From: an uncultured virus (IMG/VR IMGVR_UViG_3300044611_000958)
Taxonomy: Duplodnaviria; Heunggongvirae; Uroviricota; Caudoviricetes
Length of the DNA: 64,000 nt
IMG/VR virus record: IMGVR_UViG_3300044611_000958
Reading direction: 5' to 3' (one strand)
The position numbers and the translations under genes are program-made. This document shows, in pieces, positions 40,776 through 61,244 of this stretch (positions are counted from its first letter, which is position 1; every line of letters starts with the position of its first letter). The notes under the pieces are model-generated. The model saw only the letters and a list, made by a program, of their open reading frames with translations. It made no database searches and was not told the DNA's origin.

Positions 40776-41543
40776 CTATATTTCTATTTCAATATAACGC
40801 TTAGACTTATCTGGATACTTTTCTTTAATATTTTCAAGAATAGACAAAATCTTAGTTTTTAATTCTTCCTGTTTAACCAGAGATAAAGAATCGGACAGAT
40901 TCTTAACTCTGATGATTATAAAACCTTTACTTAATATTAAGCCTGTTTTATTTTGATCTGCCTTTATTTGTTTTTGTAGCTTTTCTTCTCCCCATATTGG
41001 CAAGAAATGAGAAGGACCGTCTATCTCTATTATAGCCTTGAGGTCTGGAAAGTACATATCGATTTCTAGATTTTCATTTACCAACAAGTTCTTTTTATGT
41101 ATTTCTAATTTATAGCCAAGTTTTTGGAATTCATTAGACAAAAATTTTTCTAACTTGGAGCCTTCTTTTCCAGCTTTTCTTATTGCCTCAATGGCCGCAG
41201 AAGACATAGCTTCTTTTTTAGAGAGAGGAATATTTGCCCACCTTTCTTTTGCTGCGGCAATGCATTTTTCATATTCTTCTTGGTTAAGGTTTGCCCACCT
41301 TTTATGTAACGCCTTACTAATTTTTAGCTTTTCTTCCTTTGTTCTAGACTTACCAACAGTTGGTATTTTTGCTCTGCCATTTTTTAGAGCATTGGCTTGG
41401 GCTTCGCTTTTGTTTAATATCTTTACTTTATTCTTTATAAGAATTCTTCTTATTTTGTTGGGATATGTTTTCAATATCTCAGCAATTTCTTTCATACTTT
41501 TATTTTCTTTTACATATAGGTCTATTATATATTTTTCATTCAT
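40776..41543 (-). CDS. HTH + NUMOD-like + PD-(D/E)xK (Vsr/DUF559-like) endonuclease
   Basis: 'SKLEK', 'LEIDMYFP...IIEIDGPSHF' nuclease motifs; 'GKSRTKEEKLKISKA' NUMOD3-like repeat. Confidence 0.7.
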   Translation of the reverse strand: MNEKYIIDLYVKENKSMKEIAEILKTYPNKIRRILIKNKVKILNKSEAQANALKNGRAKIPTVGKSRTKEEKLKISKALHKRWANLNQEEYEKCIAAAKERWANIPLSKKEAMSSAAIEAIRKAGKEGSKLEKFLSNEFQKLGYKLEIHKKNLLVNENLEIDMYFPDLKAIIEIDGPSHFLPIWGEEKLQKQIKADQNKTGLILSKGFIIIRVKNLSDSLSLVKQEELKTKILSILENIKEKYPDKSKRYIEIEI

Positions 41544-41982: not shown

Positions 41983-42729
41983 TTAACAAGCTCCTATTTT
42001 TAATACATTATATTTTAAGCATAGATTTACATAAAAATAAAATCTTTCTAAACCATGCCCAACTTCGCCATCTTTTCTATATCCCGTTTCGAAAAAATTG
42101 TCATGTATACAACTCAAGGCTAACTTTAAAATAGACTTCTTAATACAGAACATATTTCCCGCAGTAAAATCAAAGTTTAAGTGATCATCTTCCATTAAGC
42201 CAGTGTCTTGAAACAAAATTTGTTGCAATTCTCTAACCCACACAAGAGTTTGTTTTGATCTAATGTTAACAATTTTATTGTGTTTTGGTAAATCGTCGCT
42301 TTGTTTGATTAATTCGCTCTCATTTAATATTTTAAGCTGATAAGTAGGCTTATCTGATACAACAATCCCAATTTTATTACTTAAATAACCCGGATCAAAA
42401 GAGCAAAATGGATTTATTAAATCATCTATCCAGTTTAATTTGCTAATATGTTTATCATGAAAGTAAAAAACCCAATCATTTAGATCATCTTCATATTTAG
42501 TAAATATTTTATAAAGACCATATTGGTCGTTACCTCTGTTTTCTTCTTCATTTATAATAATATTGTTATAATAATTTTTAGCATAATTAATTATATTTTG
42601 GTTGGATATAGAATCTTTTACTAATGAAAGATATAGGGTGTCATTTTTATAAAACTTGGAAACCTTATCCAATAGATATATGGAAGGCTCTTCGTAAAAT
42701 AAATGTAGTATTAAGGATGAGTCGTTCAT
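41983..42729 (-). CDS. RgpF (rhamnan synthesis F)-like glycosyltransferase
   Basis: Motifs 'HLFY', 'NRGND', 'FHDK', 'F.AGNMF', 'DG...HGLERF' follow the RgpF family pattern. Confidence 0.7.
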   Translation of the reverse strand: MNDSSLILHLFYEEPSIYLLDKVSKFYKNDTLYLSLVKDSISNQNIINYAKNYYNNIIINEEENRGNDQYGLYKIFTKYEDDLNDWVFYFHDKHISKLNWIDDLINPFCSFDPGYLSNKIGIVVSDKPTYQLKILNESELIKQSDDLPKHNKIVNIRSKQTLVWVRELQQILFQDTGLMEDDHLNFDFTAGNMFCIKKSILKLALSCIHDNFFETGYRKDGEVGHGLERFYFYVNLCLKYNVLKIGAC

Positions 42730-43397
42730 AATAAAGACATCGCGCCCGTATTGAAGCTTCCATGAAAACCAAAAGAATTATATGTACTTATATCTTCTTT
42801 GACAAATGGATGGCATGGCAATGGATATTCTATTGAGAAATTAGCTGCTAATTTTGCGCTTGGGAATTTTATATCATTCTCTAACATATATTCATAGTTT
42901 TCGTAACATAAAAACCAATCTTCTGGAGTTATATCACGATATTGTTTTTGCCAATCGTATAGCCATTCGCAATCCTGTGGGTTATAACGTAATTTGCTAG
43001 ATGCTTCAAGGAATTTTCTACTACGTAAAGAGAAGCCGCCATTTCCAACTCTGTTTTTGCTAAACGCATGATCCCATGGCGCCCCAATATAATCATAATT
43101 TAAGAAGTCATCTGTCCAGAGGTTATGATTAATAATAAAACCATCCCACTGAACCAGTAAGCAAAACTCCGTTTCGACTAATTCATGTAGATGATTTATA
43201 CAAATCCTATTATAACCATCTAAATTCTTAACTAGATCATGATTAATATGCTTGTAATTATTAGACTTCTGTACATTAGATATAATACTAACATCTCCAA
43301 AAGTAATTTTACTACAAGAAAAATCTACAGCTTTTAATGTTTCTTCATACTTTTTTTCATCCGTTATAGTAAGAAGCGTTACTTGTGGTAAGTTCAT
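42726..43397 (-). CDS. DUF5672-like GT-A glycosyltransferase
   Basis: 'LVQWDGFI', 'YDYIGAPW', 'VGNGGFSLRS', 'PED.F', 'FGFH' motifs. Confidence 0.8.
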   Translation of the reverse strand: MNLPQVTLLTITDEKKYEETLKAVDFSCSKITFGDVSIISNVQKSNNYKHINHDLVKNLDGYNRICINHLHELVETEFCLLVQWDGFIINHNLWTDDFLNYDYIGAPWDHAFSKNRVGNGGFSLRSRKFLEASSKLRYNPQDCEWLYDWQKQYRDITPEDWFLCYENYEYMLENDIKFPSAKLAANFSIEYPLPCHPFVKEDISTYNSFGFHGSFNTGAMSLL

Positions 43398-44239
43398 GTT
43401 TTTGGTATTTGAGAAAGTATGGACTTTGCTCTATTTATAGATGTGTGCTTATTTGTTAATATGTCGCGTAATTTTGTAAAATCTTGCAGCTTGTTCTCAC
43501 TATTATAATCTAAATCAAGATTATCAACATCAAACAGTTTAGACAAAGCCAATTTTGTTTCGTCGCCATTAGGTATAAAATACGCTTTTGCTCCAGCACC
43601 TATTACATCAAAGAAGGATTGTGGAATATTTTCTTCTAAGCCCACAAATATAATTTCTTCATAAGATCTATATAGTGGGATAATACTTCTTTCTGGTCTA
43701 AAAATATCTACATTTGCCTGAGTATCTATACTTGTAATAATGTGAAATTTATCGTTTGCGCTAGAGAATTTTGTTATATCTTCATATGTTGCACTTTTTG
43801 ATAAAAATAAAGCCTTAGTAAATTTAAACAAACTCTTGGGTTGACTATTAATTAATCCTATATCAGCACCGTTAGATATTCTAACAAATGGGATATTTCT
43901 TGTCAAGACGGGTTTGGTGCTGTTAAACATAAAAACACAGTTGATATTTCTATCTTCTAATATTTGCTCTACCTCTATTATATTTTTTAGCAATGCGTTC
44001 CCAGTATGAAGTATAAACTTAATATGAGGATTGTCTTGCAAATAATCTATCACGCCTCTAGATAATGCGTTTAATGACGAAATTATAATATCTGGCTTAA
44101 ATCTATCCCCATAATCATATATAGCGTCTCTAGGTGAAATAAGTATGGATTCATGTTCTTCATATTGATTTAATTCGTGCGATAGATACGCAGCTTCTGT
44201 AGATTCGTTAATTTCAAAATCTGTAACTAAAAATTTCAT
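43394..44239 (-). CDS. divergent GT-B-like protein
   Basis: Two-Rossmann layout with 'KPDIII' and C-terminal 'ILTNKHT..NRAKSIL' as in CgeB-like GTs; catalytic motifs look degenerate. Confidence 0.4.
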   Translation of the reverse strand: MKFLVTDFEINESTEAAYLSHELNQYEEHESILISPRDAIYDYGDRFKPDIIISSLNALSRGVIDYLQDNPHIKFILHTGNALLKNIIEVEQILEDRNINCVFMFNSTKPVLTRNIPFVRISNGADIGLINSQPKSLFKFTKALFLSKSATYEDITKFSSANDKFHIITSIDTQANVDIFRPERSIIPLYRSYEEIIFVGLEENIPQSFFDVIGAGAKAYFIPNGDETKLALSKLFDVDNLDLDYNSENKLQDFTKLRDILTNKHTSINRAKSILSQIPKT

Positions 44240-44985
44240 TCCTCTTCTCCCTTTTGATCACTATATGTTTTAGGATTATCTATTTTAATAATTTCGTCTT
44301 TAATCATTGTATAATCAACGTTTATTTTTCTAGATATCATTTCATTAATTAGTTCAAACCACATCTTTTTCTTGTATGATTCTTGTAGTAATATCTTTTT
44401 CATGGTAGATATTACATTTTTATTATTAATCCACATCATGTCTAGCCAAGAATTTTTTGCACAAAACGACATATATTCTACTTGATTCTTTTCATTTATG
44501 TTTATTCCTATTTCTGATCTCTTATTTTCTTCAGAAATATATAACATAACTCCTGACTTTTGTAATGGTTTGATTTTTTTAGGCAAAGTTAATGCATTGA
44601 TTAACAATATATTAGAATTTGAGGTATTATTTAAACACAGTCTAAGCGACTCACAGGCGTTTGTTGAGTTATGGATTTGATTTTCTACTATTCTTATATT
44701 TGTATTATAATATTTAGTTTGTACATATTTGATAATTTTTTCTGATTCTGGCCCAACACACATTATTATATCTGCATTGGCAAAATGCGCATTTATAAAT
44801 GCTATATGATAATCTAATATTTTAATATTTTCTTTTAAGCTAAATAGAGCTATAGGTCCATAAGACTTCATTCTATTTATAGTAGAGTCATACAATAGCA
44901 CAACAGATGTTGGCTCTTGAATTTTTGAATAAAGTTTTTTTACTGTTTTATTTGTTTTAACTGATGTTATACAATTTTTTTTCAT
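44236..44985 (-). CDS. nucleotidyltransferase-like protein (degenerate)
   Basis: 'RMKSYGP..L...ILDYHI...IIMCVG....I...NIRIVEN.....N..ESL' resembles LicC/NTP_transf_3, but lacks the LAAG-GxR glycines. Confidence 0.55.
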   Translation of the reverse strand: MKKNCITSVKTNKTVKKLYSKIQEPTSVVLLYDSTINRMKSYGPIALFSLKENIKILDYHIAFINAHFANADIIMCVGPESEKIIKYVQTKYYNTNIRIVENQIHNSTNACESLRLCLNNTSNSNILLINALTLPKKIKPLQKSGVMLYISEENKRSEIGININEKNQVEYMSFCAKNSWLDMMWINNKNVISTMKKILLQESYKKKMWFELINEMISRKINVDYTMIKDEIIKIDNPKTYSDQKGEEE

Positions 44986-45410
44986 GAGATTCTTGATAAT
45001 ATTAGTTTATAAATAAATCCTTGTCTATCTAGAGACACCATATTTAAGCCAAACTGTCTAGCAATACTTAAAATAGATTTTACAGACGTAACAGACTTAT
45101 TATTATATATAAGCTTATTAACATATTCTTCATCTATTAAATTTATTCTGTGTTGCTCCATTATAAAGTTAAGATCGATTCCTTTAAAAAGGATGGTTCC
45201 ATTTAATCTTAATTTAGTAAAAATTGTTTGGGCGGCTTCTAAAAACTGTTCATATGCAATGTTCTCAAAAACTTCTTCACAAATTATTTCCTCGCAGGAA
45301 TGATTTGTAATATCGTTAAGATCTTCTAGCGTGTTTTCTTTAACCTTTAAGATTCTATATTCTGGTGGAACATCCTTAAGATTATCTCTGCTGGTTAGTA
45401 TTAGTTTCAT
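44982..45410 (-). CDS. degenerate class I SAM-methyltransferase-like protein
   Basis: 'SCEEI....VFENI......L..I..KLRLNGTI' resembles MTase motifs IV-VI; no GxGxG motif I. Confidence 0.4.
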   Translation of the reverse strand: MKLILTSRDNLKDVPPEYRILKVKENTLEDLNDITNHSCEEIICEEVFENIAYEQFLEAAQTIFTKLRLNGTILFKGIDLNFIMEQHRINLIDEEYVNKLIYNNKSVTSVKSILSIARQFGLNMVSLDRQGFIYKLILSRIS

Positions 45411-46534
45411 GCTTTCTCCTTTGTAAGTTCTTCAATCATAATTTTGGCTACGTTGTCATAGTTATATTCAGATGCTCTGCTTAATCCATCTTGTCTATTT
45501 ATATTATTTCTATTTTCATAATAATATCTCATAGCTGCCTTGGTGTCCCTTTCGCTGGGAACAAACCAATGCTCTCTCCCTGTAAATATCGTTGGGAAAG
45601 CTGGATCTGAGTGGTTGCAAATGGAATAAACTCCATCAATTAAAGTTCCAGTATTTTTATTGTTTGTATCTATAAAGTCCTTAGTTCCACCATCATTGCT
45701 ACATATTGGAGTATTACCAAAGCACATTGATTCAAAAGACGGTATAGACCATCCTTCTCCGTGTGATATATTAATAAAACAATCGCATGTCGCATGAAGT
45801 GATAAAATTTCATTCTCCGAAAAGAAATCAGTTAGAAAATATTCTGGACAAAACTCACTTGCGTTTCTCCATATTCTTAAAGATTTCTTGATATCGTTAG
45901 ATCTAGACATTAAGTTTTCTTTTAGCTGTCTAGAATCTATACCATGCTTGCTTCCTTTTATTACCAGCGCAACGTTTTCGTCATTATGAAACTCGCTGTG
46001 ATAACATCTTATTATACTGTCAATATTTTTTCTATCATTAATATCTCCTATATAATAAAACTTAAATGCGTCTCTTGAGGCTGGAAACAAGATATTCTTA
46101 TAAGAATCTTTGTTATAATTTGATAAATTAAAAGCATATGGTACAACCTTTACGTTGTTTACCCCATCGTTTAAAAGAACCGCTTTATTGGATTGACTTG
46201 GAACCCATACCTCTTGAGCTTCCTGTAATATTGATAGCCATCCAGAGTATTTTACCGTATCGGTTTCACCAACAAAGCATAAAATATTCTTTTTAAATTT
46301 TTCACTTTGGCTAAAACAATGTGGCAACACATGCTGTATACAATAGTCTATATTTTCTATAGGCTTATTTTCTAGTTCTAGTATTCTTTCTGGAACTGGA
46401 TTATTTTTATTTGTAAGAGGAATGTTTCTACAAACAACATTAACATTGGCGCTATCAAGGGCTAAAATATAATCTATAGCCGCTCTAGCCCATCCGGTTC
46501 CCTCTTTATAATGTCCTACATATAATATGTTCAT
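45407..46534 (-). CDS. GT4-family glycosyltransferase
   Basis: 'RKNID', 'DCFINISHGEGWSIPSFESMCFG.TPI' (Ex7E motif). Confidence 0.85.
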   Translation of the reverse strand: MNILYVGHYKEGTGWARAAIDYILALDSANVNVVCRNIPLTNKNNPVPERILELENKPIENIDYCIQHVLPHCFSQSEKFKKNILCFVGETDTVKYSGWLSILQEAQEVWVPSQSNKAVLLNDGVNNVKVVPYAFNLSNYNKDSYKNILFPASRDAFKFYYIGDINDRKNIDSIIRCYHSEFHNDENVALVIKGSKHGIDSRQLKENLMSRSNDIKKSLRIWRNASEFCPEYFLTDFFSENEILSLHATCDCFINISHGEGWSIPSFESMCFGNTPICSNDGGTKDFIDTNNKNTGTLIDGVYSICNHSDPAFPTIFTGREHWFVPSERDTKAAMRYYYENRNNINRQDGLSRASEYNYDNVAKIMIEELTKEKA

Positions 46535-48201
46535 TTACTTTGCCCCAATTGTTGAATTGTTTTTAGTCTTTCCTGCTCCCAAAAATTATTCTTTTCGCAC
46601 AATCTATAAAAATGATCATAAGCAATATCAAAGTTAAAAGATTGAACTGGTTTTTGTTCAAACATGGAAGCGTCTTCATTATAATACATTCCACCGGTTA
46701 CGCCCGTAGAACAACTGTATAGTAAATCTTTCATTAGTCTAAGATGCATATAAGAATTTAGTTTAGATGGATCTTTCAAAACATTTACTATAAGCCATTC
46801 TGCCAATTGGTCTGGCATAACTTGTTGCCAATTTCTAATTTTAGGCTCTGGTTGATTTATGTTTGGCCTAGAATTAAACCATGGATTATAAGTATCAGAC
46901 ACTTCAACGCTGTCGAAGTACGATTCCCACACAGAACCAGATTTATCCCATTGAAAATGTTTCATAAAGTTATTTCTATGGGTATCGCCAACTTGTTTTC
47001 TTTCCTCGTCTGACAAGTCAAAGAAATCCTTTAGTAGCTTTGCTGCTAATTCATTGTCAGGAACGGCTCTCATGCATCCAGTTTCCATTTCTTTATACAA
47101 AGCTTTTGGTTTTACGGGTATTCCTCCAAGCTGTCTAATTACGCTTTCCATAGCCGAATAATCAGTAGCCATAACTGGCACACCGCAAGCGGCGGCTTCT
47201 ACTTGTGGCAAACCAAAGCCTTCACAGTTAGCATATTGTACATATATATCAAACATATTTATAATAGAGGATAGATCTTCATAAGATAAGCCTACCCTAA
47301 CGTTCGACAGAGTGGCGTTGAATTTACCGGTATACGGAGACTCTACCACCGGCCCCTTAAAAAATGAGGGAAATGGCTTCATCGTGTCGCCACAAACGTA
47401 TGTAAACATAACCTTTGAAGATAGATTATATTGCTGTAATAATTCTGGTATATCCCAACCCATGTCTGGATAACTAGTATGGCAATATAGTATATAATTA
47501 TTATTATCAGTTTGATTATTCAAAAATGTCCTAAACATTTCAAATAAATCTGGATATAATTTTCTTCTTTGATTTCTCATGACGGTACCAATGATTCTGG
47601 TATTTGCGTCAATATTAAAATATTCTTTTATACCATTTTTATCATTATGTGGCTTGTAAGCATGATGAGCGGACGGTGGAGCGGAACCTATATAATTAAT
47701 TTTACCGCCACCTTGATCCTTCAATACTTCGCCAGCCCAATCAGAATATGTCAAGCAGGCGTCAGCGCCCTTGTAGGAATAAATCCACTGTCTTGCTTGT
47801 GGGGCGGCATCTACAGTTGGCATGATGCACCATTTAAAATACTTTCTGAACGGAGATCTTTCGGCAAAATCCAACATCCAAAAGTCTCTAATATCACAAA
47901 CAATATCTGGGAAAAAATTTAGACAGACTCTCTCAAAAGCATATTCTCCAAACTGATTGCTTGGAACGGAAGAATATTCTCTTATGAGATCTTGCGGCGC
48001 ATCCTTTGGTAAACCCGCCCCGAAAAATCTCCATGGGATATTTTTAGCTCTTGGGTCATTCGGCTCTGCATAGCTAGCCAATTCTGCTAATTCGTACTTT
48101 TGTGTACTATAAAGATAATTAAGTATTTCTCTAGTATATGTTGCGTATCCGGTATTTAAAAACGTGGCTTCACTACAAAATAAAATTCTTTTTTTTCTCA
48201 T
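46531..48201 (-). CDS. GT4-family glycosyltransferase with C-terminal extension
   Basis: 'TGYA', 'RNQRRK', 'EGFGLPQVEAAACGVPV'; start refined to ATG 48201 (ATGA overlap). Confidence 0.85.
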   Translation of the reverse strand: MRKKRILFCSEATFLNTGYATYTREILNYLYSTQKYELAELASYAEPNDPRAKNIPWRFFGAGLPKDAPQDLIREYSSVPSNQFGEYAFERVCLNFFPDIVCDIRDFWMLDFAERSPFRKYFKWCIMPTVDAAPQARQWIYSYKGADACLTYSDWAGEVLKDQGGGKINYIGSAPPSAHHAYKPHNDKNGIKEYFNIDANTRIIGTVMRNQRRKLYPDLFEMFRTFLNNQTDNNNYILYCHTSYPDMGWDIPELLQQYNLSSKVMFTYVCGDTMKPFPSFFKGPVVESPYTGKFNATLSNVRVGLSYEDLSSIINMFDIYVQYANCEGFGLPQVEAAACGVPVMATDYSAMESVIRQLGGIPVKPKALYKEMETGCMRAVPDNELAAKLLKDFFDLSDEERKQVGDTHRNNFMKHFQWDKSGSVWESYFDSVEVSDTYNPWFNSRPNINQPEPKIRNWQQVMPDQLAEWLIVNVLKDPSKLNSYMHLRLMKDLLYSCSTGVTGGMYYNEDASMFEQKPVQSFNFDIAYDHFYRLCEKNNFWEQERLKTIQQLGQSK

Positions 48202-48521
48202 GCCCAATCCTCAAATTCGTTTTGTTGACAAATATCGAACTCATTAATTCTAAATACTATATCATCACTATCTTTAGAAATGTTTTTAGCAGAAGCATTA
48301 ATAGTAATTTTTGTGCCTTTTGTGGCAAACTTTTCTATAGTTTCGGCACCGGTATGCCAAGCTTCACAATTTAAATATGTGGGTATTCTACTTTTTTCGC
48401 CAGTGCTTTTTGTGCGTCTATATGTATAGACAACCACTGTGAATTCTGCCCGCACAACATCGTCTACCATCGACGTTCTTGGGTTCTCTATCAAATATCC
48501 AGTAAAACAGCAATTATTCAT
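48198..48521 (-). CDS. ssb: single-stranded DNA-binding protein
   Basis: 'MN...F.G.L...P', 'CEAW..GAE.I.KF..KG..I.I' OB-fold SSB pattern; short acidic tail. Confidence 0.8.
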   Translation of the reverse strand: MNNCCFTGYLIENPRTSMVDDVVRAEFTVVVYTYRRTKSTGEKSRIPTYLNCEAWHTGAETIEKFATKGTKITINASAKNISKDSDDIVFRINEFDICQQNEFEDWA

Positions 48522-48566
48522 CTTTTCTCCTTCTGTATGTTAGACAGTTTGTTTAAAAAAAACAAC

Positions 48567-50138
48567 CTAAATTTCATGGATTTTATCTACTATAAAAGAT
48601 GTGTCATTCTTTGAAACAGATCCACAAAAAATAAGATTATTTCCTTCATATAATATATATTTATATTTCTCCTTAACGGATGGAAAAATAATCACACTAT
48701 CCAACATGCAAGTTTCGTCTTCTATAGTAAGAAATGACATTAATTTGCCTTTGGATTCTCCCTTCGTTATTTTATAATCTGCTAGCCGCTGTATATTTCC
48801 AACAACGCATAGATCTTTACCTCTTTTTCCGTTTACTATCTCTTTGCAAGTAGTGTTTGCGGCAGAAGTGTCAGAGGTTTCTATTTTGGTTAATGTTATT
48901 GGGCATCCCAAAAATTTAATTTCTTGATCTATTATCCAGTTTGGATCGTCTATTAAATCATACGGAGGGTTGAGCAGTAGCTTAATTTCATTTTCTATTG
49001 TTTGTTTTCGTTCTAGCTTACTTGTGCCGCCGCCCTCTTTTTTAGTTGGAGCTAGCGCCAATAGGCATTCTGATAAGTCTTTCCAATCCTTATTAAAATT
49101 ACTTTGAACCCACTTTTGTTCGCTTGCGGTAAGTGTTCTATAGATTTCATAATCATATAAAGCTTTTGTCCTGCTAATAGATCCATCAAAATCTCTAAAA
49201 AATCCAATAGATGCTAATGCTTTAAATGCTGTGGAGTTTATATTAGGCGCAAAAAACACAAGCAATTCAATCCATGTAAACTTATCTATTTTTTTGCCTA
49301 GTTCTTTTTCTATAGACTCTATCGCCTCGACAACATGATCGCCGGTTTTTCCTGTAAGCGATTTTATATCTTTAAGTCCAAAATAAATTTTATGACCTTT
49401 AATATTAAATTTTGGCTTATAATTTTTAAGACTTGGTGTTTTAGCTTGTATATCAAATAGTTTAGCCTCCGAAATTAATTCATATATTTCTTGGTGAGGA
49501 TCTTGCTTTTCATTTGCGTAATATAGATATGATAAAAAGAAATTTTCTGGACTGTGAGCTTTTTCATAAGCGCTCCAATATGAACAAATTGCATAAGAAA
49601 CACTATGAGACTTATTAAAAGCATATCTTGAGGATTTTTCAATCCAGCTAAATATTTGCTCTGCCTCATCTTTACTTACCATCCCCACCTTCTCTGAGCC
49701 ACTTATAAATGTTTTCTTTACCTCTGCCATAAGGTCAGCTTTTTTCTTGCCGATGGCTTTACGCAACATGTCTGCTTCTTGTAAATTAAATCCGGCGACC
49801 TTTTGTGCAATTCGCATGGACTGTTCTTGATATACTAAAACACCATATGTTGGAGAAAGTATTTCTTCTAAGCATCCATGTAAATATGTAACTTCCTCTC
49901 TGCCGTGTTTTCTGTCTACATAGTGCTGTGTCATGCTTTTGCCGTCCACAAAAGCCTTTAATGTTCCGGGTCTAATAATTGCAATAAGGGCAGATAATTC
50001 TTCAATATTTTTTGGTGCTAATTTTTTTGCCCAAGATTTTCCTAAGTTGCTTTCTAGCTGAAATATGCCCTTAGTCTTGCCTTCTGCAAACATCTTCCAA
50101 GTAGCATCGTCGTTATAATCAGTTTGATATTTTGGCAT
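48567..50138 (-). CDS. dnaE: DNA polymerase III alpha, C-terminal half (fingers, HhH, OB)
   Basis: 'GIFQLES', 'IRPG', 'TYGVLVYQEQ', 'LRKAIGKKK', 'YAFNKSH', 'I.FGL..IK', OB 'G.LMSFLTIED'; start probably ATG 50138. Confidence 0.9.
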   Translation of the reverse strand: MPKYQTDYNDDATWKMFAEGKTKGIFQLESNLGKSWAKKLAPKNIEELSALIAIIRPGTLKAFVDGKSMTQHYVDRKHGREEVTYLHGCLEEILSPTYGVLVYQEQSMRIAQKVAGFNLQEADMLRKAIGKKKADLMAEVKKTFISGSEKVGMVSKDEAEQIFSWIEKSSRYAFNKSHSVSYAICSYWSAYEKAHSPENFFLSYLYYANEKQDPHQEIYELISEAKLFDIQAKTPSLKNYKPKFNIKGHKIYFGLKDIKSLTGKTGDHVVEAIESIEKELGKKIDKFTWIELLVFFAPNINSTAFKALASIGFFRDFDGSISRTKALYDYEIYRTLTASEQKWVQSNFNKDWKDLSECLLALAPTKKEGGGTSKLERKQTIENEIKLLLNPPYDLIDDPNWIIDQEIKFLGCPITLTKIETSDTSAANTTCKEIVNGKRGKDLCVVGNIQRLADYKITKGESKGKLMSFLTIEDETCMLDSVIIFPSVKEKYKYILYEGNNLIFCGSVSKNDTSFIVDKIHEI

Positions 50139-50784
50139 AATAGTCTTCCGCAAAGTATGGTTTCAATTTAATATTTCCAACTTCATCTGACATGTTTTCA
50201 ATTCTTGTCTTTATTTCTAGCTCGTCAACGTTTCCCATTCCAGAGACATGATAAGTACCCATGCCCCACCTATATACCATGGTTACATCTGAAAATTCTT
50301 TAATTCTTGCGTTGTGTTTAAATGTTATATCGTCATCTTCTCCAAATGACTTGTCGCCAAAACTAATTCTATTAATATAATTAGAAGTATAAACATTTCC
50401 AGTATTAATATTATTGTGTGTTCCGTGATACTTATTATTTACAAACAAGTGATGCGACCTAGATCTGTATACATCGTGTAATACATCCAAGTTGTCACTT
50501 ACTATGTTTAAGGCATTTCTATATAATAAATCATCATCGTCTAGTCTATAAATATAGTTATGTTTGGCTTGGTTAAAACCCCACTCTAGCTTTTTAGATA
50601 TAGACGAAAATCTTTGTTTAACATTAAATATTTTTACATTTGGAATGTCAATTTCATAGTCTACTTCTGGAGCATCATTAATTACTAACATTTCGCAATC
50701 TTCTCTATTTTGTAAGCAAAAAGAGTATATTGCTTCTTCTAATATCTTATGCCTTTTATAAGTTAGCGTTAATACAGATATCAT
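50119..50784 (-). CDS. GT2-family glycosyltransferase
   Basis: 'ISVL..TY.R...LEEAI.S', 'LDDDD' DxD motif, 'GED'. Confidence 0.85.
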   Translation of the reverse strand: MISVLTLTYKRHKILEEAIYSFCLQNREDCEMLVINDAPEVDYEIDIPNVKIFNVKQRFSSISKKLEWGFNQAKHNYIYRLDDDDLLYRNALNIVSDNLDVLHDVYRSRSHHLFVNNKYHGTHNNINTGNVYTSNYINRISFGDKSFGEDDDITFKHNARIKEFSDVTMVYRWGMGTYHVSGMGNVDELEIKTRIENMSDEVGNIKLKPYFAEDYYAKISN

Positions 50785-51461
50785 GGAATATACAATTTAT
50801 TATCTGCAAATGTCTTGTCAAGTGTAATGTTTTGATAAACGGCTCTGTGTGTTTTTAGTAATTTAATAAATATATTAGCAGTATCTTTTACGTCTTGCAA
50901 AGCGTCGTGAGCATTATCCTTAGATAGACCCATTTTTTCTCTCATTGAATCCATGCTTATAGATTTAATTGTTGGATCGCTTTCTGTCCACAGGAACATA
51001 TTATCCATAACATCAACTTTGTAAACCTTGCTAAACAACTTTTGCTGCTCTCGCTTGTTGTCCCAAGGTCCAAACTGTTCACATAGCCTATTTATAATGA
51101 TCATATCAAATCCTATAATATTATAACCAACAGGTATAGGACTAAAGAATGGATCGTTTTTCCAATTATACTGATTTACGAAAGCTGTAAATTTAGCCCA
51201 TACTGATTTTAGTGGTGGCGCTTTTTCAAGAGCTTCTCTAGTTTTATGCGTAATCTTCAAAGCTTCATCTTCTATAGGATCTAATCCAGCGGCTATAGCT
51301 TTGTCATCATCTAATATTGGACATATGTCACTATTGAAAGTACCCTTGAGTGAAAGGTTTCTTCCATCCAATGCTAAAGCTGCAATTTGTGTTGGTTGCG
51401 TTTTATGCGGATTACGAGATCCTGTCTCCCAATCAAATACGATGAAATCACGATTTGCCAT
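50781..51461 (-). CDS. dnaQ: DnaQ/DEDDh 3'-5' exonuclease (Pol III epsilon-like)
   Basis: ExoI 'FDWETG', ExoII 'GYNI.GFD', ExoIII 'HDALQD'; start refined to ATG 51461 (SD AAGGAG). Confidence 0.85.
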   Translation of the reverse strand: MANRDFIVFDWETGSRNPHKTQPTQIAALALDGRNLSLKGTFNSDICPILDDDKAIAAGLDPIEDEALKITHKTREALEKAPPLKSVWAKFTAFVNQYNWKNDPFFSPIPVGYNIIGFDMIIINRLCEQFGPWDNKREQQKLFSKVYKVDVMDNMFLWTESDPTIKSISMDSMREKMGLSKDNAHDALQDVKDTANIFIKLLKTHRAVYQNITLDKTFADNKLYIP

Positions 51462-52086
51462 GAATATGCTCCTTGTGTGATGTGGAACTGTAGAGTGTCT
51501 TGAAAATTGTCTGATCTTTATTTTGTTTAAATATTGCCTCACAAAAGTCTAGAAACTCTTGCTCTAACATATTTCCCTTCATGATATTAACCCTTTTATG
51601 TACCCATTGCACATTTCCTTCTATATATCCTTTGGATGGGTCAATTCTGTCCAGAGATGCTGTACCGTATCCCATCGCGTGTTCTATATTGTTACGCGAA
51701 AAGAATATTGGCAAACCGGTGTATTTACATTTTCTTTCTTGGGCTATAAATAGATTCCAAATATACTCTTTGGTTACAAGAAATTCTATTCCGCGACTTT
51801 TAGCCCCAGCTTTAATAGATGACAAAAATGTTCCTTGCATATCCTCATATCCAGTAAATCTTGGGTTATCCACTCCGCTTAAATAACAACGTTTTTTTCT
51901 AAATTCTATTCCATTTGCCACGAGTATCTTTCTAATTTTTCTTGGATATGAATTTACTTCATTAGCGATCTGTAAAGCGCTCTTACCTTCCTTATATGCT
52001 TTTACTACATATTTATGATCGATGTCCTGCGCATATTTTCTATCTGGAATAAATCTTCCATTTTCTTGATTTCTTTTAGTTGACAT
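51448..52086 (-). CDS. free-standing HNH-type homing endonuclease with N-terminal HTH
   Basis: 'CKYTG...ASLDRIDPSKGYIEGNVQWVHKRVNIMK' beta-beta-alpha-Me motif. Confidence 0.8.
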   Translation of the reverse strand: MSTKRNQENGRFIPDRKYAQDIDHKYVVKAYKEGKSALQIANEVNSYPRKIRKILVANGIEFRKKRCYLSGVDNPRFTGYEDMQGTFLSSIKAGAKSRGIEFLVTKEYIWNLFIAQERKCKYTGLPIFFSRNNIEHAMGYGTASLDRIDPSKGYIEGNVQWVHKRVNIMKGNMLEQEFLDFCEAIFKQNKDQTIFKTLYSSTSHKEHIHGKS

Positions 52087-52093
52087 AATTTTT

Positions 52094-52131
52094 CTCCGTG
52101 TAATTACCGTTCCTAAATATTATACACGAAA
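52094..52131 (-). promoter_or_regulatory. late promoter motif GTGTATAATA inside an SD-sequestering hairpin
   Basis: Minus strand reads TTTCGTGTATAATATTTAGGAACGGTAATTACACGGAG-AAAAATT-ATG; TTTCGTGTA pairs with TACACGGAG, which contains the SD. Confidence 0.6.
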
Positions 52132-52136
52132 TAATT

Positions 52137-53750
52137 TCAAAACTGGGTTAAGTTTGATATATACATCAATTTATCAAGAAGTGTAATTCCCAAAACGTCG
52201 AATTTTACATGCCCTAAAGCTTCTAAGTCGGCCATTTCCAATCCTGCGATTTTTTCAGTGCCATTTTTTTGTTTAACCATTGGACAAACTGTATGCAACG
52301 GATTAGCCGATATAACAACTCCAGCAGCATGTTTTCCCTGTGTCTTAAAGGTGCCTTCTATTTCTATAGCCTGTTTAAAATATTCGGCATAGTCACCAAC
52401 AATATCTCCATTATTATCTATATGACAAAAATCTTGTAGCTCTTTAGATCGATTAATTAAAGCCCATTTGATAATAGACCTATCTTCATCGTCCATTTCT
52501 GCCAACTGGTCTGAAATTTCTGCTTCATTAGGAACACTTTTGGTTATAGCGTTCATTTCAGCAAAAGAACACGCCTCATTGATGCGTAACACTTCTTTAA
52601 TGGCGCTTCTACCCTGCAATCTACCAAATGTGATCATTTGGCTAACGTGTTCTACTCCATATTTTTCTCTAAGATAATTTATAACATCATCTCTTTTCTG
52701 AGCAGGCACATCCATGTCAATATCCGGTAATGATATGTGGTCTGCTGAGTTTCTGCCAGCATTATAAAATCTTTCAAATAGCAAATCATACTCAACTGGA
52801 TCTATTTGCGTTATTCCTATTAGATATGAAATTAAACAACCGGCAGCACTACCTCTTCCCGGCCCGCTCATCCAGCCAGCATCATTGACATACTTAATAA
52901 TATCTTGCACTATTAAGAAATAACCAAAGAGATTAGCACTTTTGATAACCTTTAGTTCTTCAGTGAATCTGTCTAAATATTTTTGTTTGTCTAAATCGTT
53001 CTTAACTTTGCCTGTATCTATAAGTAACTTTTTCCATCCAACCCTTGCCAAAGTCTTTAAGTAATCCTCTTCTGATAGATTATTTGGACACTTAAAAGTG
53101 GGCAACATTGGCTTGTTTAGAATGTTATAGTCTTCACACTGTTCATATATTTGTGTCAATTCTGTTGCATCTAAATCTTTAGATTCTTCTTTATCTAATA
53201 CATAAAACTTATCATGCAAAAAGTAAGTTAACTTATCATTATCAATGCCGTCTTTTATATTGATGTTTCCATTTTTATCTTTTCTAATTTTTTTTGTGAC
53301 CTGTGGCAGAGTTGTTTTCATCTCTGAGCATAGCAATATTCTGTGCAGTTTGGCATCTTCTTTTTTGATATAATAACTAATTGGCATAGATTGTGTTGGG
53401 GAACTAGATATCTTAATGAGATTTTTCTTATTCAGCATTTTGCTTAAAGTGTCATCAGATAAATTTCCTAACTCGTCTAGCGACGAAACCAATTCGATTA
53501 AATCATACCAGCCATTCTTATTTTTGGCGAATACAATAAATCCATCAAAAGAACAACCAATAATAGGTTTAATATTAACCTTCTTGCAGGCTTGATAAAA
53601 AGCCACAGCCCCGGAAATGGACTTATAATCACATATCCCACATGCTGGATAATTATTATCTTTGCATTTTTGCGCTAGTTGTTCCGGTTTAGAAAAGCCT
53701 TGAAGTAAACTATAATGCGTAAAATTTTTCAACGGGAACCAATTGTTCAT
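52137..53750 (-). CDS. dnaE: DNA polymerase III alpha, N-terminal half (degenerate PHP + palm/thumb)
   Basis: 'YSLL.G', 'KPIIG', 'GPGRGSAAG', 'LLFERF', catalytic 'PDIDMD', 'HAAGVVI', 'KFDVLG'; start refined to ATG 53750. Confidence 0.9.
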   Translation of the reverse strand: MNNWFPLKNFTHYSLLQGFSKPEQLAQKCKDNNYPACGICDYKSISGAVAFYQACKKVNIKPIIGCSFDGFIVFAKNKNGWYDLIELVSSLDELGNLSDDTLSKMLNKKNLIKISSSPTQSMPISYYIKKEDAKLHRILLCSEMKTTLPQVTKKIRKDKNGNINIKDGIDNDKLTYFLHDKFYVLDKEESKDLDATELTQIYEQCEDYNILNKPMLPTFKCPNNLSEEDYLKTLARVGWKKLLIDTGKVKNDLDKQKYLDRFTEELKVIKSANLFGYFLIVQDIIKYVNDAGWMSGPGRGSAAGCLISYLIGITQIDPVEYDLLFERFYNAGRNSADHISLPDIDMDVPAQKRDDVINYLREKYGVEHVSQMITFGRLQGRSAIKEVLRINEACSFAEMNAITKSVPNEAEISDQLAEMDDEDRSIIKWALINRSKELQDFCHIDNNGDIVGDYAEYFKQAIEIEGTFKTQGKHAAGVVISANPLHTVCPMVKQKNGTEKIAGLEMADLEALGHVKFDVLGITLLDKLMYISNLTQF

Positions 53751-53800
53751 ATGCAATCCTTTTGTCAAAAAAGAACATCAACACGCAATCTATTATATCG

Positions 53801-54007
53801 CTAGCCGTCACGTTTGGCAAACACTTTGCTGATCTTTTTAACTAAGTCGCTGCCAGCGGTTTGATAAAAGCAAGGCAAAACAGCATGTAACAGTAAGTAT
53901 ACTCCAGCTATTATGCAGAGTGTAGCATACATAAACGCAAACCTAAAGTGTTGCGAATATGTCATATTATTTTCTAATAAATGCTGTCTTGCTTTTGCTA
54001 ATAACAT
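53801..54007 (-). CDS. small membrane protein, DUF6356-like
   Basis: 'HL..NNMTY.QH..FA...LLLHAVLP.F...A.S' pattern. Confidence 0.6.
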   Translation of the reverse strand: MLLAKARQHLLENNMTYSQHFRFAFMYATLCIIAGVYLLLHAVLPCFYQTAGSDLVKKISKVFAKRDG

Positions 54008-54011
54008 TTAA

Positions 54012-54887
54012 TCACCAGCTACGACACGCCCAGTATCTAGCCTTATATTTTGGACCCGGATTATCACAGTTGTGTCGCGCCCTAAAGCTTTTACGACGTT
54101 CTGGATTATTCTTTTTAATTGTCATATTGGGATCGCCAAACCTAACAATAACAACGTTGCCACTTTCGTTCTTAACATAAACAGCAAACTTCTTTGGCCC
54201 ACCGGGAGTTCTAAATGGTTTATTTAAAGTAACTTTTCTTCCTTGATATTCAGAGGCTTCTGTTTCTTCTTCTTCGTCATCATCTTCATATTTTTGCGGT
54301 TCATAATATTTAACAAAATCGTAAACATTTTGTATATATATTTCTGCCTTAGAAATCATGTCTTTTGTCCAATCTTGGAATTCTACCGGTAGCGAAACTT
54401 GTTTTAGTCTCATTACTATTTCCATTAATTGGTCGTGCATTTTTTGTATCTGTTCTACGGCCATTTCATCGCCGCTGTCTGACTGAGCCTTTTTCCAAGC
54501 GTCTTTACTTGGCCTATCTGGATCTCCCGGCTTAGCTGGTTTATAATTTTTACCTTCTCTCTCTCTTTTTTTGCGAATATTTTCCCATAACCCAGGCTTC
54601 TCCGCAGCAACATCCCAATCTTCTGACTCTTCTCCAAAATCTTCATATTCAGCTTCTAGTGGGATATAAAAATTGTTTTCGGTTAGTTCCTCTTCATAAC
54701 CAAAGTTCTGCACTGTATATTCAAAATCTGCGGCTTCAATCTTATCGCAAGATTCTATTGCCTTTGATATACAAATAGCCGTTCTTTGATCGGTATCTGT
54801 ATATTCCTTTTTCATTACATCGTCAGACATACATCTAGACATAAATGAATTTTTATCTTCTTTTTCTTTTCGTGATGGTATTGGCAT
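54012..54887 (-). CDS. modular hypothetical protein built from small domains seen in large-phage genomes
   Basis: Modules 'MPIP....FMSRCM', 'GLWENIRKK', 'DWTKDMISKA..YI', 'EYQGRKV.LNKP...RRKSFRARHNC...ARYWACRSW' joined by acidic linkers. Confidence 0.55.
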   Translation of the reverse strand: MPIPSRKEKEDKNSFMSRCMSDDVMKKEYTDTDQRTAICISKAIESCDKIEAADFEYTVQNFGYEEELTENNFYIPLEAEYEDFGEESEDWDVAAEKPGLWENIRKKREREGKNYKPAKPGDPDRPSKDAWKKAQSDSGDEMAVEQIQKMHDQLMEIVMRLKQVSLPVEFQDWTKDMISKAEIYIQNVYDFVKYYEPQKYEDDDEEEETEASEYQGRKVTLNKPFRTPGGPKKFAVYVKNESGNVVIVRFGDPNMTIKKNNPERRKSFRARHNCDNPGPKYKARYWACRSW

Positions 54888-54897
54888 AATGTTCTCC

Positions 54898-55749
54898 TTA
54901 AATTATAATTTTTTGAATGGCCTGTTTAAGTATGTTATCTATACTTCCAGAAGGCACTTGATCTTTAAAATGGGTATATATATCTTTAATCATTTGATGG
55001 TTTGGATCTTGTGTTAACTCTAACCAGCCAACAAAATAATTCCAAATTCTATCTTCTAATACTAACCTGTATTTAATACCAGCTGGGCGACCAAATCTAT
55101 GTAGCCACTTAAAGTCTGGCAAGCATAGAGCTTTTCCACCAAGCTGTCTAAATTTTTCATGTATATATCCTTCTTCTCCACCAAATCCTTTAAAATGATT
55201 ATTGAATCCTACCCAGTTTTTTGTTTCGCAGGAAAATACTCCAAGTCCCTGCATCGGTATTTCAAACGGTTGATTAGACTGTAGACCTTCGTAGTCTGTA
55301 GCCCACTGACCATACATTCCAGAAGACCAGTTTGGAACAAAGTGCGTGGAAGGAGATTTTAAATCATCATAAATTAGTGGCCCCTGTATAATATTTTTGC
55401 AATCTGGATTAGATTCATAATAATTTAACAGAGTATCTATAGCATTTTTAAAAAACATCACATGGGAATCCATGCAAATTGTATATTTGCCAGAAGCATT
55501 TCTAAACACTTCGTTTCTAATGGCCGTTCCACTTCTATATGTATATGGTATGTATTTACCATTATTAACCCAATTCATAAAACTTTTAGTCGCTTGACCG
55601 TGTTGAGAATTGGGATTATTATCTACTACAATGATTTCAACATCATCATTATTGCAGATTTTATGGAACATTCTTAATGACTGTATGGAGAAATACACTC
55701 CATCAAAATCATCATATGTTGCCATACCTATAGTTAATAGTTTGCTCAT
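54898..55749 (-). CDS. GT2/GalNAc-T-like glycosyltransferase
   Basis: 'LTIGMATY', 'IIVVDN', 'CMDSHV' (DxH), 'GFGGEEG'. Confidence 0.8.
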   Translation of the reverse strand: MSKLLTIGMATYDDFDGVYFSIQSLRMFHKICNNDDVEIIVVDNNPNSQHGQATKSFMNWVNNGKYIPYTYRSGTAIRNEVFRNASGKYTICMDSHVMFFKNAIDTLLNYYESNPDCKNIIQGPLIYDDLKSPSTHFVPNWSSGMYGQWATDYEGLQSNQPFEIPMQGLGVFSCETKNWVGFNNHFKGFGGEEGYIHEKFRQLGGKALCLPDFKWLHRFGRPAGIKYRLVLEDRIWNYFVGWLELTQDPNHQMIKDIYTHFKDQVPSGSIDNILKQAIQKIII

Positions 55750-55751
55750 TT

Positions 55752-56777
55752 TCAACCCGGAGCCTCGTAAAATCCTATATTGAAACCTTCTCTAGTGCAA
55801 TCTTTAATCGTTTTGTCCATCCCGTGAGTATTCAGATAGTCTTCTATGTATATACACATATTTTTGTCGGTTTCTGGCCAGCTATTTTTGCAGAAGTGGC
55901 ACAATTTAGAACATTTCCAGTTACTTCTATCTTGAGAAATTGGTTTTGGTTGATTGTTTTTTTGAATGTCTTTAAATCTTTGTTTTAGCATGTCCAAAAA
56001 CTTTGAATGATCTGACTTGTCAAAGCACATTGAAAAAGGTCCACCGTCCTTAATGAAAAATATAGACATAATAGCCTGTTCATAATCTGGAAATAGCTTA
56101 GAAATGGCATAGTTATATAACAGCAATTGTGGATCTGAGCATAATTTTTCATATGTTTTTTCTTCTCCCGTGGCCCAATCTAGTCTTCGTCCCGTTTTCC
56201 AATCTATAACTTCTATTATTTTGTCACTTGTTTTTGTTACTAAGTCAATTGTTCCCTTGATGGCTAATTGTCCATTTATTTTTTTGCCATCTGGTAAAAC
56301 ATATTCGAATTTAGCCCAATCTTCCTCTATTGGAATGTCAAAGTGCGGCTCTGCCGCAACTATGTCTCTGTTTCGTGGATCAAATTGCCCATGGTTAAAG
56401 TCTAAAGTTGTACATATTAGACTATAGCAATTTTCTTTATCAAGCTTAGTAAAAGAGTGTGCGGAATTCGCCGTATAAAATTCAAAACTTTTATCCAACA
56501 AAGCACTAACCGTCTTGTCTTCATAGAGTTCTTGCTTTGTTATTGATATTTTTCCCAAGGAGTCATCTTCAATAACTATTTTCTTACTCTTGCCTTTAAG
56601 TTCTTGTTCTGCTTTTTTTAATGACGCTAAGCACTCTAACACCTTATGAACAATTGTTCCAACGTCTGCCTTTTTTCCACTTACAGACTGATGACCCAGA
56701 ACGTATGTAATAAAGTATTGCATTTGGCAGTAAGCATAATTATTATAACTAGAAGATCTAATATATGTTACTAACAT
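55752..56777 (-). CDS. Cas4/AddB-like PD-(D/E)xK exonuclease with Fe-S cysteines
   Basis: N-terminal Cys, 'GTIVH', 'E...GTIDLV', 'IDWKTG', 'QLLLY', C-terminal 'C...CHF...C'-type Cys cluster. Confidence 0.85.
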   Translation of the reverse strand: MLVTYIRSSSYNNYAYCQMQYFITYVLGHQSVSGKKADVGTIVHKVLECLASLKKAEQELKGKSKKIVIEDDSLGKISITKQELYEDKTVSALLDKSFEFYTANSAHSFTKLDKENCYSLICTTLDFNHGQFDPRNRDIVAAEPHFDIPIEEDWAKFEYVLPDGKKINGQLAIKGTIDLVTKTSDKIIEVIDWKTGRRLDWATGEEKTYEKLCSDPQLLLYNYAISKLFPDYEQAIMSIFFIKDGGPFSMCFDKSDHSKFLDMLKQRFKDIQKNNQPKPISQDRSNWKCSKLCHFCKNSWPETDKNMCIYIEDYLNTHGMDKTIKDCTREGFNIGFYEAPG

Positions 56778-60377: not shown

Positions 60378-60835
60378 AGTCTCTTACCTTTCTCTAATAA
60401 AATATCCGCTTTGCGTTTTAATTCGTACACTTTGCCGTCTAGGTTTTGCATCCTAGCATGTGCTACTTGTCTATAGCTATCAATAGATTTGGCATATTCA
60501 TTATCCACTACAATTAATTGAATTTTTGCATCATGCTTAGTATATTGACTGAATTTATCGTTATTTTTTGCCACCATTTTTTCTAGCTGATCATTACATA
60601 GGTCATAAACTACTTTTTGTCTATTATATTGATCTTGCACATAAGAAGCATAACTATATAGCAAATATGCAGTATCAAAGTGTTCTTCTTTGGTTAGCTT
60701 TTTAAGATGCTCATCTGACAGGTCTGATACAGTTAAAAATTCTTCTCTAAAATTTGCAAACTTGGTATTAGTCTCATTAGTAAAATCTTCTAGTTTGGCT
60801 AGGAAATCTTCTACAGTCTCTTTAGCTGTTTTCAA
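60374..60835 (-). CDS. coiled-coil protein, possibly a UvsY-like recombination mediator
   Basis: All-helical 153 aa; near the RecA-like gene. Confidence 0.4.
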   Translation of the reverse strand: MKTAKETVEDFLAKLEDFTNETNTKFANFREEFLTVSDLSDEHLKKLTKEEHFDTAYLLYSYASYVQDQYNRQKVVYDLCNDQLEKMVAKNNDKFSQYTKHDAKIQLIVVDNEYAKSIDSYRQVAHARMQNLDGKVYELKRKADILLEKGKRL

Positions 60836-61244
60836 TTTGTTGTCTCCAATCTTCGTCTGAGTCAGAATATTTCAATATTACTATGTCAACGCCATTAAGT
60901 TTGCACCACTCTATTTTATCCTCATCCTTGGCTTTTGCCAAAAGAAAATCTGCTTTATTTTTATGGAAAAATGCATTATATTCATAATGCTGCTGACCAT
61001 GAACCTCAAAAGCTTTTTTAATCTGCGGAATATAAAAGTCTAAATAAAGTACTCCCTTTCTGTGGGTGGCTGTACTTCCCGGTAATTTTACTTCTTCTAG
61101 AATACGATAACTATTATATATATTCTTCAATAATATTCTAGCACGTAAATGATATTTAGATCTAGATCTTTTGTCATCATTTTTTATGTCATATGCGGAC
61201 AAGTTCCATACATATTCTTTCCCATTAATTCCAAACACTTTCAT
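60822..61244 (-). CDS. PD-(D/E)xK (Vsr/DUF559-like) endonuclease
   Basis: 'EEV.LP...LYLDFYIP....FEVHGQQH...D..K..WC'. Confidence 0.75.
   Translation of the reverse strand: MKVFGINGKEYVWNLSAYDIKNDDKRSRSKYHLRARILLKNIYNSYRILEEVKLPGSTATHRKGVLYLDFYIPQIKKAFEVHGQQHYEYNAFFHKNKADFLLAKAKDEDKIEWCKLNGVDIVILKYSDSDEDWRQQIENS

Follow-up and report, generated by a model that had tools for sequence, protein, structure and literature searches.

How can a phage keep the catalytic subunit of its replicase when the gene for it is cut in two? The question is raised by the first 64 kb (the window) of a 72.5-kb partial contig from an uncultured virus (Caudoviricetes; IMG/VR record IMGVR_UViG_3300044611_000958), with matching sequence in lake and freshwater metagenomes and no RNA data set among the matches listed. 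There, the alpha subunit of DNA polymerase III (Pol III), or DnaE, is encoded as two proteins cut after the palm, with a conserved dnaQ gene of the proofreading type between them. The sequence comparisons given below make it probable that the two halves form a replicase, likely non-covalent, that DnaQ is its likely proofreader, and that an HNH-type gene and a GT2 glycosyltransferase gene lying in the same gap are late passengers. The genes concerned are as follows:

52137..53750, minus strand: DnaE N-half, 537 aa (Pfam PF07733, E 2e-68; PF02811, E 3e-16), matching E. coli alpha 9-563
51448..52086, minus strand: HNH-type gene, 212 aa (PHROG endonuclease, E 2e-28; endonuclease VII, E 8e-20)
50781..51461, minus strand: DnaQ-like DEDDh 3'-5' exonuclease, 226 aa (PF00929, E 6e-12)
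50119..50784, minus strand: GT2 glycosyltransferase, 221 aa (PF00535, E 9e-9), overlapping the dnaQ stop and the C-half start
48567..50138, minus strand: DnaE C-half, 523 aa (PF17657, E 9e-48; PF14579 below the cut-off)
48198..48521, minus strand: SSB gene directly after the C-half (PF00436, E 3e-7)

A previous interpretation of this DNA made without database searches (the sequence-only reading) had placed the N-half, HNH-type, dnaQ, GT2 and C-half open reading frames (ORFs) on the minus strand, and all five are present at these positions.

Two complementary halves

The N-half comprises a degenerate PHP domain, the palm and the thumb, and has a single conserved helix at its end, whereas the C-half carries the fingers (with the motifs LRKAIGKK and YAFNKSH), the HhH and the OB fold. 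PHP, fingers and OB follow each other in the canonical DnaE order (PF02811, PF07733, PF17657; the NCBIfam DnaE models span residues 6-523 of the C-half) and are spread over two ORFs 2 kb apart instead of a single polypeptide. The three catalytic aspartates of the palm, in the N-half motifs PDIDMD (342-347) and KFD (518), align to the 401/403/555 region of E. coli alpha. The C-half matches E. coli alpha over residues 592-843 and weakly over 981-1060, and its end corresponds to about residue 1073 of 1160, without the tau-binding C-terminal domain. The active site of Pol III alpha needs both the palm aspartates and the fingers. As the catalytic aspartates lie in the N-half and the conserved fingers motifs in the C-half, neither half could work alone.

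The N-half stops 19 residues past the KFD aspartate, just as the sequence-only reading had described. That reading had also held the halves to be complementary and had proposed an alignment to E. coli alpha; in a global alignment, their ends fall at E. coli residues 574 and 584. Counted from the K of KFD up to the F of FQLES, both halves together supply 47 residues. The closest one-piece phage relatives have 44 over this stretch, another one-piece group 49-54 and E. coli 56. Nothing is therefore missing relative to the one-piece relatives. Placed on a confidently modelled one-piece relative (pLDDT 89.8), the cut lies just after the palm, in a loop (534-542) between helices 521-533 and 543-550. 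Among 47 split N-halves, two residues of the terminal helix, L525 and K527, never vary.

A split common to a phage family

Related loci were gathered by viral and metagenome scans, and the counts given here are based on L001-L371 plus the window, taking distinct N-end sequences that show both halves. Among 228 such loci, 226 are split at the same site and two are in one piece, so that the split point is common to nearly all the related phages compared. An assembly artefact, which the sequence-only reading had considered, does not account for the arrangement: contigs from other studies (runs X5 and X6) span the junctions between N-half and HNH-type gene and between GT2 and C-half, and the split recurs in 226 distinct loci. 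Both catalytic motifs are retained in 225 of the 226 split loci. Over 16 independent close pairs, the median dN/dS is 0.05 for the N-half, 0.026 for DnaQ and 0.033 for the C-half; strong purifying selection acts on all three genes. Each of five relatives of 94-100% completeness has one DnaE N-half, and neither PolA nor PolB was found in any of the five. What stands of the sequence-only reading is an intein-free two-chain DnaE, here seen to be kept by selection and most likely non-covalent in its assembly; its view of the HNH gene as a possible splitter and of the three gap genes as later fillers alike is not supported.

The ssb gene immediately follows the C-half in 187 of the 198 loci with enough flanking sequence. 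Outside metagenomes, 1330 records of cultured phages match, all below 60% identity (24-30% for the 60 among the matches listed). Among the best 80 GTDB matches, drawn from 9 of 64 parts, three short contigs come near the family; they sit in unrelated metagenome-assembled genomes, in which they are probably mis-binned.

A likely history: one split, then re-fusion

The history of the split was addressed by trees of 72 rows and then of 39-40 rows, picked from 291 two-gene loci and 120 longer proteins and rooted on bacterial and distant one-piece enzymes. Intein-bearing rows were mostly omitted, and P0032 was dropped because it had no junction match. One-piece DnaEs with 40-46% identity to the C-half are among the longer homologues. 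In both the N-half and the C-half trees, such one-piece relatives are placed within the split family, where they form at least two groups. The approximately unbiased (AU) test rejects a single split clade (p-AU 5e-5 for the C-half, 5e-6 for the N-half) as well as a single nested one-piece clade (p-AU 5e-7). Three changes are required by the C-half tree and five by the N-half tree, of which strong branches force two and three, respectively.

The dnaQ gene lies directly upstream of the polymerase gene in the one-piece loci L186 and L323. The order in L186 is small gene-dnaQ-dnaE-ssb, and that of its split relatives is N-half-small gene-dnaQ-C-half-ssb. Such an arrangement would correspond to a block swap, which tandem duplication followed by loss could give in either direction. 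The one-piece outgroup locus L374 has no dnaQ within 6 kb, and no locus of the one-piece P0010 group was found in the metagenome scan. Two further proteins, P0001 and P0005, group with split phages by their N-half and with one-piece phages by their C-half, a conflict hinting at an exchange of halves. Re-fusion of the halves in some relatives appears likely from these patterns.

The alternative is that the one-piece form was ancestral throughout and that the gene was split repeatedly and independently at the same weak point, without any re-fusion. It finds some room in the trees, as the AU rejection of a single split clade gives no direction and the deep forks are not strongly supported. It remains unlikely, since it would take about seven independent cuts at one site, with dnaQ placed there each time, versus three changes with re-fusion on the C-half tree. 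Moreover, the deepest rows of the N-half trees are split, the two one-piece groups differ in the length and sequence of their linker (44-45 versus 49-54 residues), and a Cys-rich C-half extension is common to distant split branches.

DnaQ between the halves

Every one of the 226 split loci has dnaQ between its halves. The gene is a fixed member of the cassette, and not, as had been proposed from the sequence alone, a later gap filler equal to HNH and GT2. Its residues D10, E12, D119, H185 and D190 are invariant in 30 aligned sequences, which gives the ExoI DxE, ExoII D and ExoIII H..D of a DEDDh exonuclease, and its C-terminal F..AF tail is conserved too. The PHP metal-ligand motifs vary across the family, with 0-1 of four present in the 114 short N-halves and 3-4 of four in 95 of the 101 long ones. 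The window branch has short N-halves and has lost the PHP ligand motifs. DnaQ is, on this evidence, likely the proofreader of the split polymerase.

It could be asked whether DnaQ, beyond being a bound proofreader, is an obligatory structural bridge between the halves, making a three-chain enzyme. Its presence between the halves in every split locus, the lowest dN/dS of the three genes, the conserved F..AF tail and an intact DEDDh set retained even in branches with an active-looking PHP would all suit such a role. Nevertheless, one-piece relatives keep a very similar dnaQ, 49-56% identical to that of the window and adjoining the polymerase gene, with no split to bridge, and an obligatory bridge is for this reason rather improbable.

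The HNH-type gene and other passengers of the gap

The content of the gap varies apart from dnaQ. GT2 is found in one gap of 226, that of the window, and other phages have different cargo there. The replication genes of the window are surrounded by further glycosyltransferase and related genes, two GT1-type and a second GT2 (41983-48207 and 54898-55755, minus strand). The HNH-type gene is a recent and optional passenger. Its family occurs in 9 of the 226 gaps, always directly after the N-half stop; the eight other copies or remnants begin -3 to 61 bases from that stop, deep branches included, and those of L044, L053 and L094 are remnants of 45-60 aa. One copy shares 92% identity with that of the window, as against 73-81% for the genes on either side of it. 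An allele without the gene co-occurs with the window sequence in one phage population and differs in the following segment:

51463..52154, no strand: 692-bp segment exchanged for 31 other bases in the HNH-less allele (contig joint 51462-52155)

This joint, linking 52155 to 51462 through the 31 other bases, is carried by a contig of run X6 at a depth of 15.5; contigs with the HNH gene reach 3.2-3.8, and past the fork the depth is 19.4. Contig depth is a rough measure, and the short side of the joint has only 30 bases, as expected of an assembly-graph fork. The same loose end is found in run X8, from a different study, and run X7 has zero coverage over the HNH gene. Joints at 49629-52750 (X5) and 49786-50877 (X7), also with short sides, were set aside as probably foreign. 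Read by hand, the N-half of the HNH-less allele ends with five different residues and is directly followed by dnaQ; the polymerase is still split. The swap alters just the last five N-half codons and the ribosome-binding site of DnaQ.

In a model of pLDDT 67.7, the HNH-type protein appears to combine a helix-turn-helix with a PacI-like fold. Compared with PacI, this model gives Z 8.8 and a root-mean-square deviation of 4.0 over 124 aligned residues; PacI is also the best Foldseek match (E 2e-3), with none at 1e-3. In an atlas look-up, clusters without a name ranked first and HNH clusters scored 0.89-0.91. The catalytic histidine expected of an HNH enzyme is replaced by Arg147: the catalytic position reads Asp-Arg and not Asp-His, in an Asp-Arg..Tyr..Asn pattern whose Tyr154 is invariant in six aligned sequences. 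Endonucleases of the PacI group are described as having a Tyr in place of the His (PMC5714182, PMC3384342), and the window protein resembles them in its invariant Tyr. With its optional presence at a fixed site, lateral spread and decay to remnants, the gene seems to behave like a free-standing homing endonuclease using a pre-existing gap. Two more endonuclease-like genes are found by PHROG match elsewhere in the window (40776-41543 and 60822-61244, minus strand). Nuclease-like ORFs of any kind occur in 37 of 226 gaps. The commonest gap passenger (L001:9648-10010 and 43 similar rows) is of a second, endonuclease VII-like family and is mostly located between dnaQ and the C-half.

The sequence-only reading saw in the HNH gene the possible cause of the fracture. 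Under that scenario, an invading homing endonuclease of this family would have fractured dnaE as mobE did nrdA of phage Aeh1, dnaQ and GT2 coming later. Splits made by endonucleases are published (PMC2677866), split inteins with associated endonucleases occur at other places of this gene in related phages, and both the placement of the other eight copies or remnants next to the N-half stop, even in deep branches, and the 37 gaps with nuclease-like ORFs fit it. Such a cause is improbable all the same for the family seen here: a co-occurring allele without the window gene is split nonetheless, only 9 of 226 gaps have a member of the family, and the window copy looks recently transferred (92% versus 73-81% for the flanks). 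In addition, this scenario leaves the presence of dnaQ in all 226 gaps and the block swap of L186 without explanation, and no acquired tails are present on the window halves. The first cause of the split may have been an ancient endonuclease that was later lost.

Are the halves joined?

No Hint or intein family is found in the proteins of the window with Pfam (E<=0.01) or NCBIfam (E<=0.1). These libraries are weak on a true control, the IntN of the relative L029 being matched only at E 0.002-0.1, and own IntN and IntC profiles were for that reason built from six real split inteins located at another site of the same gene in relatives. They matched three of four positive-control ORFs and, among 472 test sequences, no window protein or junction end. 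By motif, an IntN with its Cys/Ser start is present in 0 of 226 N-half tails and an IntC with HN before C/S/T in 0 of 226 C-half heads. The junction is thus intein-free by all three sets of profiles, as the sequence-only reading had it. Rfam gives no match at E<=1 within 48000-54500 of the window. The frame offset from N-half to C-half is 0, 1 or 2 in 63, 89 and 74 loci, and the gap measures 0.6-6.5 kb; such an unfixed offset and variable gap argue against splicing, hopping and programmed frameshifting. Direct neighbour genes mostly overlap by 4-11 bases.

Covalent joining of the halves by RNA splicing, protein trans-splicing or ribosomal hopping or frameshifting, to which the genuine split inteins of relatives, found elsewhere in this gene at two sites, would lend some credit, is very hard to sustain when no junction of 226 has an intein motif, Rfam shows no intron, neither frame offset nor gap content is constant, a gap holding dnaQ alone in 36 of 226 loci leaves no space for a ribozyme and the final five N-half residues differ between alleles.

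How the enzyme would work

A two-chain enzyme would then arise as follows. The N-half, dnaQ and the C-half would be co-translated from one operon through their overlapping stops and starts. The last N-half helix and the palm would pack on the fingers of the C-half as they do in the one-piece enzyme, rebuilding the active site from both chains. In the window branch, DnaQ would take over proofreading from the PHP domain. The whole would go back to one old split, followed by re-fusion in at least two lineages through a block swap putting dnaQ before the gene.

Several points weigh against this picture of a working two-chain replicase with an old split. The loci were gathered as the best hits in targeted searches and do not sample the phages at random. 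The direction of change hangs on a root with long outgroup branches, the deep forks having supports of 84-90, and the one-piece group in the test giving p-AU 5e-7 was named after the first tree had been seen. The place of dnaQ may reflect operon history and not binding. No beta clamp gene was matched in the five relatives of 94-100% completeness, and Q..LF-type clamp-binding patterns were found in 1 of 226 C-halves, the window C-half not being among them, which makes processivity hard to explain. The window branch is devoid of both the Cys-rich N-terminal extension of the C-half and the small gap genes seen in other branches, so that the native interface would have to suffice, and the window halves have no added tails, unlike Aeh1 NrdA.

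A wider view can be put forward only tentatively, with the odds somewhat against it. The junction of palm and fingers may be a reversible hinge, and the family one of aquatic phages with a clip-together polymerase, whose catalytic and fingers genes would be exchangeable, re-fused at least twice and tolerant of further cuts, the window branch being the minimal form that relies on the native interface.

Further cuts and additional elements in relatives

True split inteins are present at two other sites of the polymerase in L029:6343-8308, L067:5948-9037, L137:8076-10840 and L148:18485-21447, one after GPGRG in the N-half, the other at FNKS in the C-half; an endonuclease-like ORF often separates the pieces. 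The polymerases of these relatives consist of three genes, one junction being spliced and the other not. Another intein-free cut, immediately ahead of PDIDxD, is found in L079:6017-9010, L146:9944-11957, L246 and protein P0050. Its pieces have a short conserved tail and a conserved head of 77-93 aa, without match to intein profiles; an ORF separates them in L079 and L246, and 25 bases only in L146. When these heads were compared with DnaE segments, of which they could be duplicates, 0-7 of 200 shuffles scored as high and the profile probability was 1%. Three- and four-piece polymerases exist among the relatives.

The Cys-rich N-terminal extension of the C-half carries a CGC motif and, ahead of the first conserved Trp, a third Cys; it is present in 95 of 226 split loci (L069:5984-6150 and deep branches). 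From its sequence, it is possibly a metal-binding clasp that was lost in the window branch. Two unrelated small conserved genes, one of about 60 aa with a Cys-Cys motif and the other of about 78 aa, occur between the N-half and dnaQ in other branches (L069:5117-5299, L125:9324-9560, L186:6261-6512), neither being found in the contig of the window; the 78-aa gene is still beside dnaQ in the one-piece L186. In L148, the polymerase gap contains an IMPDH/GMP-reductase-like gene (L148:13121-15548), broken in its turn by a split intein that comes with an endonuclease-like ORF. Away from the polymerase, the window encodes a 3995-aa ORF (16328-28315, plus strand) after a 2167-aa tape measure gene.

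Comparison with known systems

The cassette marks a place in a family C replicative polymerase at which selection maintains the enzyme despite a cut. It offers a natural two-component Pol III alpha, together with natural pairs of split and re-fused enzymes for comparison, and makes testable both the cost or gain of fission for an essential enzyme and the reversibility of replicase fission. Alleles with and without the HNH gene illustrate that an endonuclease can sit in a split gene without having caused the split. The literature on split DnaE, split phage polymerases, split gp43 and the nuclease, searched mostly without subscription papers and without the supplements that may tabulate such splits, yielded no description of this cassette.

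Single-chain DnaE with epsilon (E. coli 2HNH and 5FKU; T. aquaticus 2HPI) shares with the window the PHP-palm-thumb-fingers-HhH-OB order, the catalytic aspartates and a separate DnaQ. The window differs from it by its two genes, a shortened PHP without metal ligands, the lack of a tau-binding domain and the absence of any detected clamp motif.

Cyanobacterial split DnaE and the fractured genes of phages, including three metagenomic dnaE loci with an endonuclease between the pieces, rely on split inteins and are ligated, whereas the window junction has none (PMC2677866). In the relative L148, a split intein lies at the FNKSH segment, which the window has intact. Fission is taken as irreversible for cyanobacterial dnaE in the same paper.

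Group 2.2 jumbo phages have a minimal intein-free split Pol III alpha that is predicted to reconstitute (PMC7824862). That form is restricted to the core, cut inside the catalytic module, encoded by distant genes and found beside a PolB, whereas the window enzyme is near full length, cut after the palm and encoded in one operon, with no other polymerase detected in five relatives. The B-family polymerase of PhiKZ is also a phage replicative polymerase in two chains, DNAP-N and DNAP-C, which are encoded by two genes and purified as a 1:1 complex (PMC13648687). It differs by its family, by a cut in a palm insertion and by an exonuclease within the N chain.

Parallels in gene organization are nrdA of Aeh1, split by the HNH gene mobE and with terminal tails essential in the NrdA protein (PMC3045599), and the split gp43 PolB of T4-like phages (PMC2677866). 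Each is an essential phage enzyme made from two co-oriented, intein-free genes with an endonuclease gene in the gap. In the window family, the endonuclease is not tied to the split (its own family occupies 9 of 226 gaps, and a nuclease-like motif of any kind is seen in 37 of 226), and acquired tails are lacking in the window branch whereas deep branches do have the C-half extension. The window polymerase belongs to family C, its fixed gap gene is dnaQ, and its split is common to hundreds of phages and was likely reversed more than once. Non-covalently split phage enzymes are already known, and a family C polymerase with a fixed dnaQ in the gap would join them.

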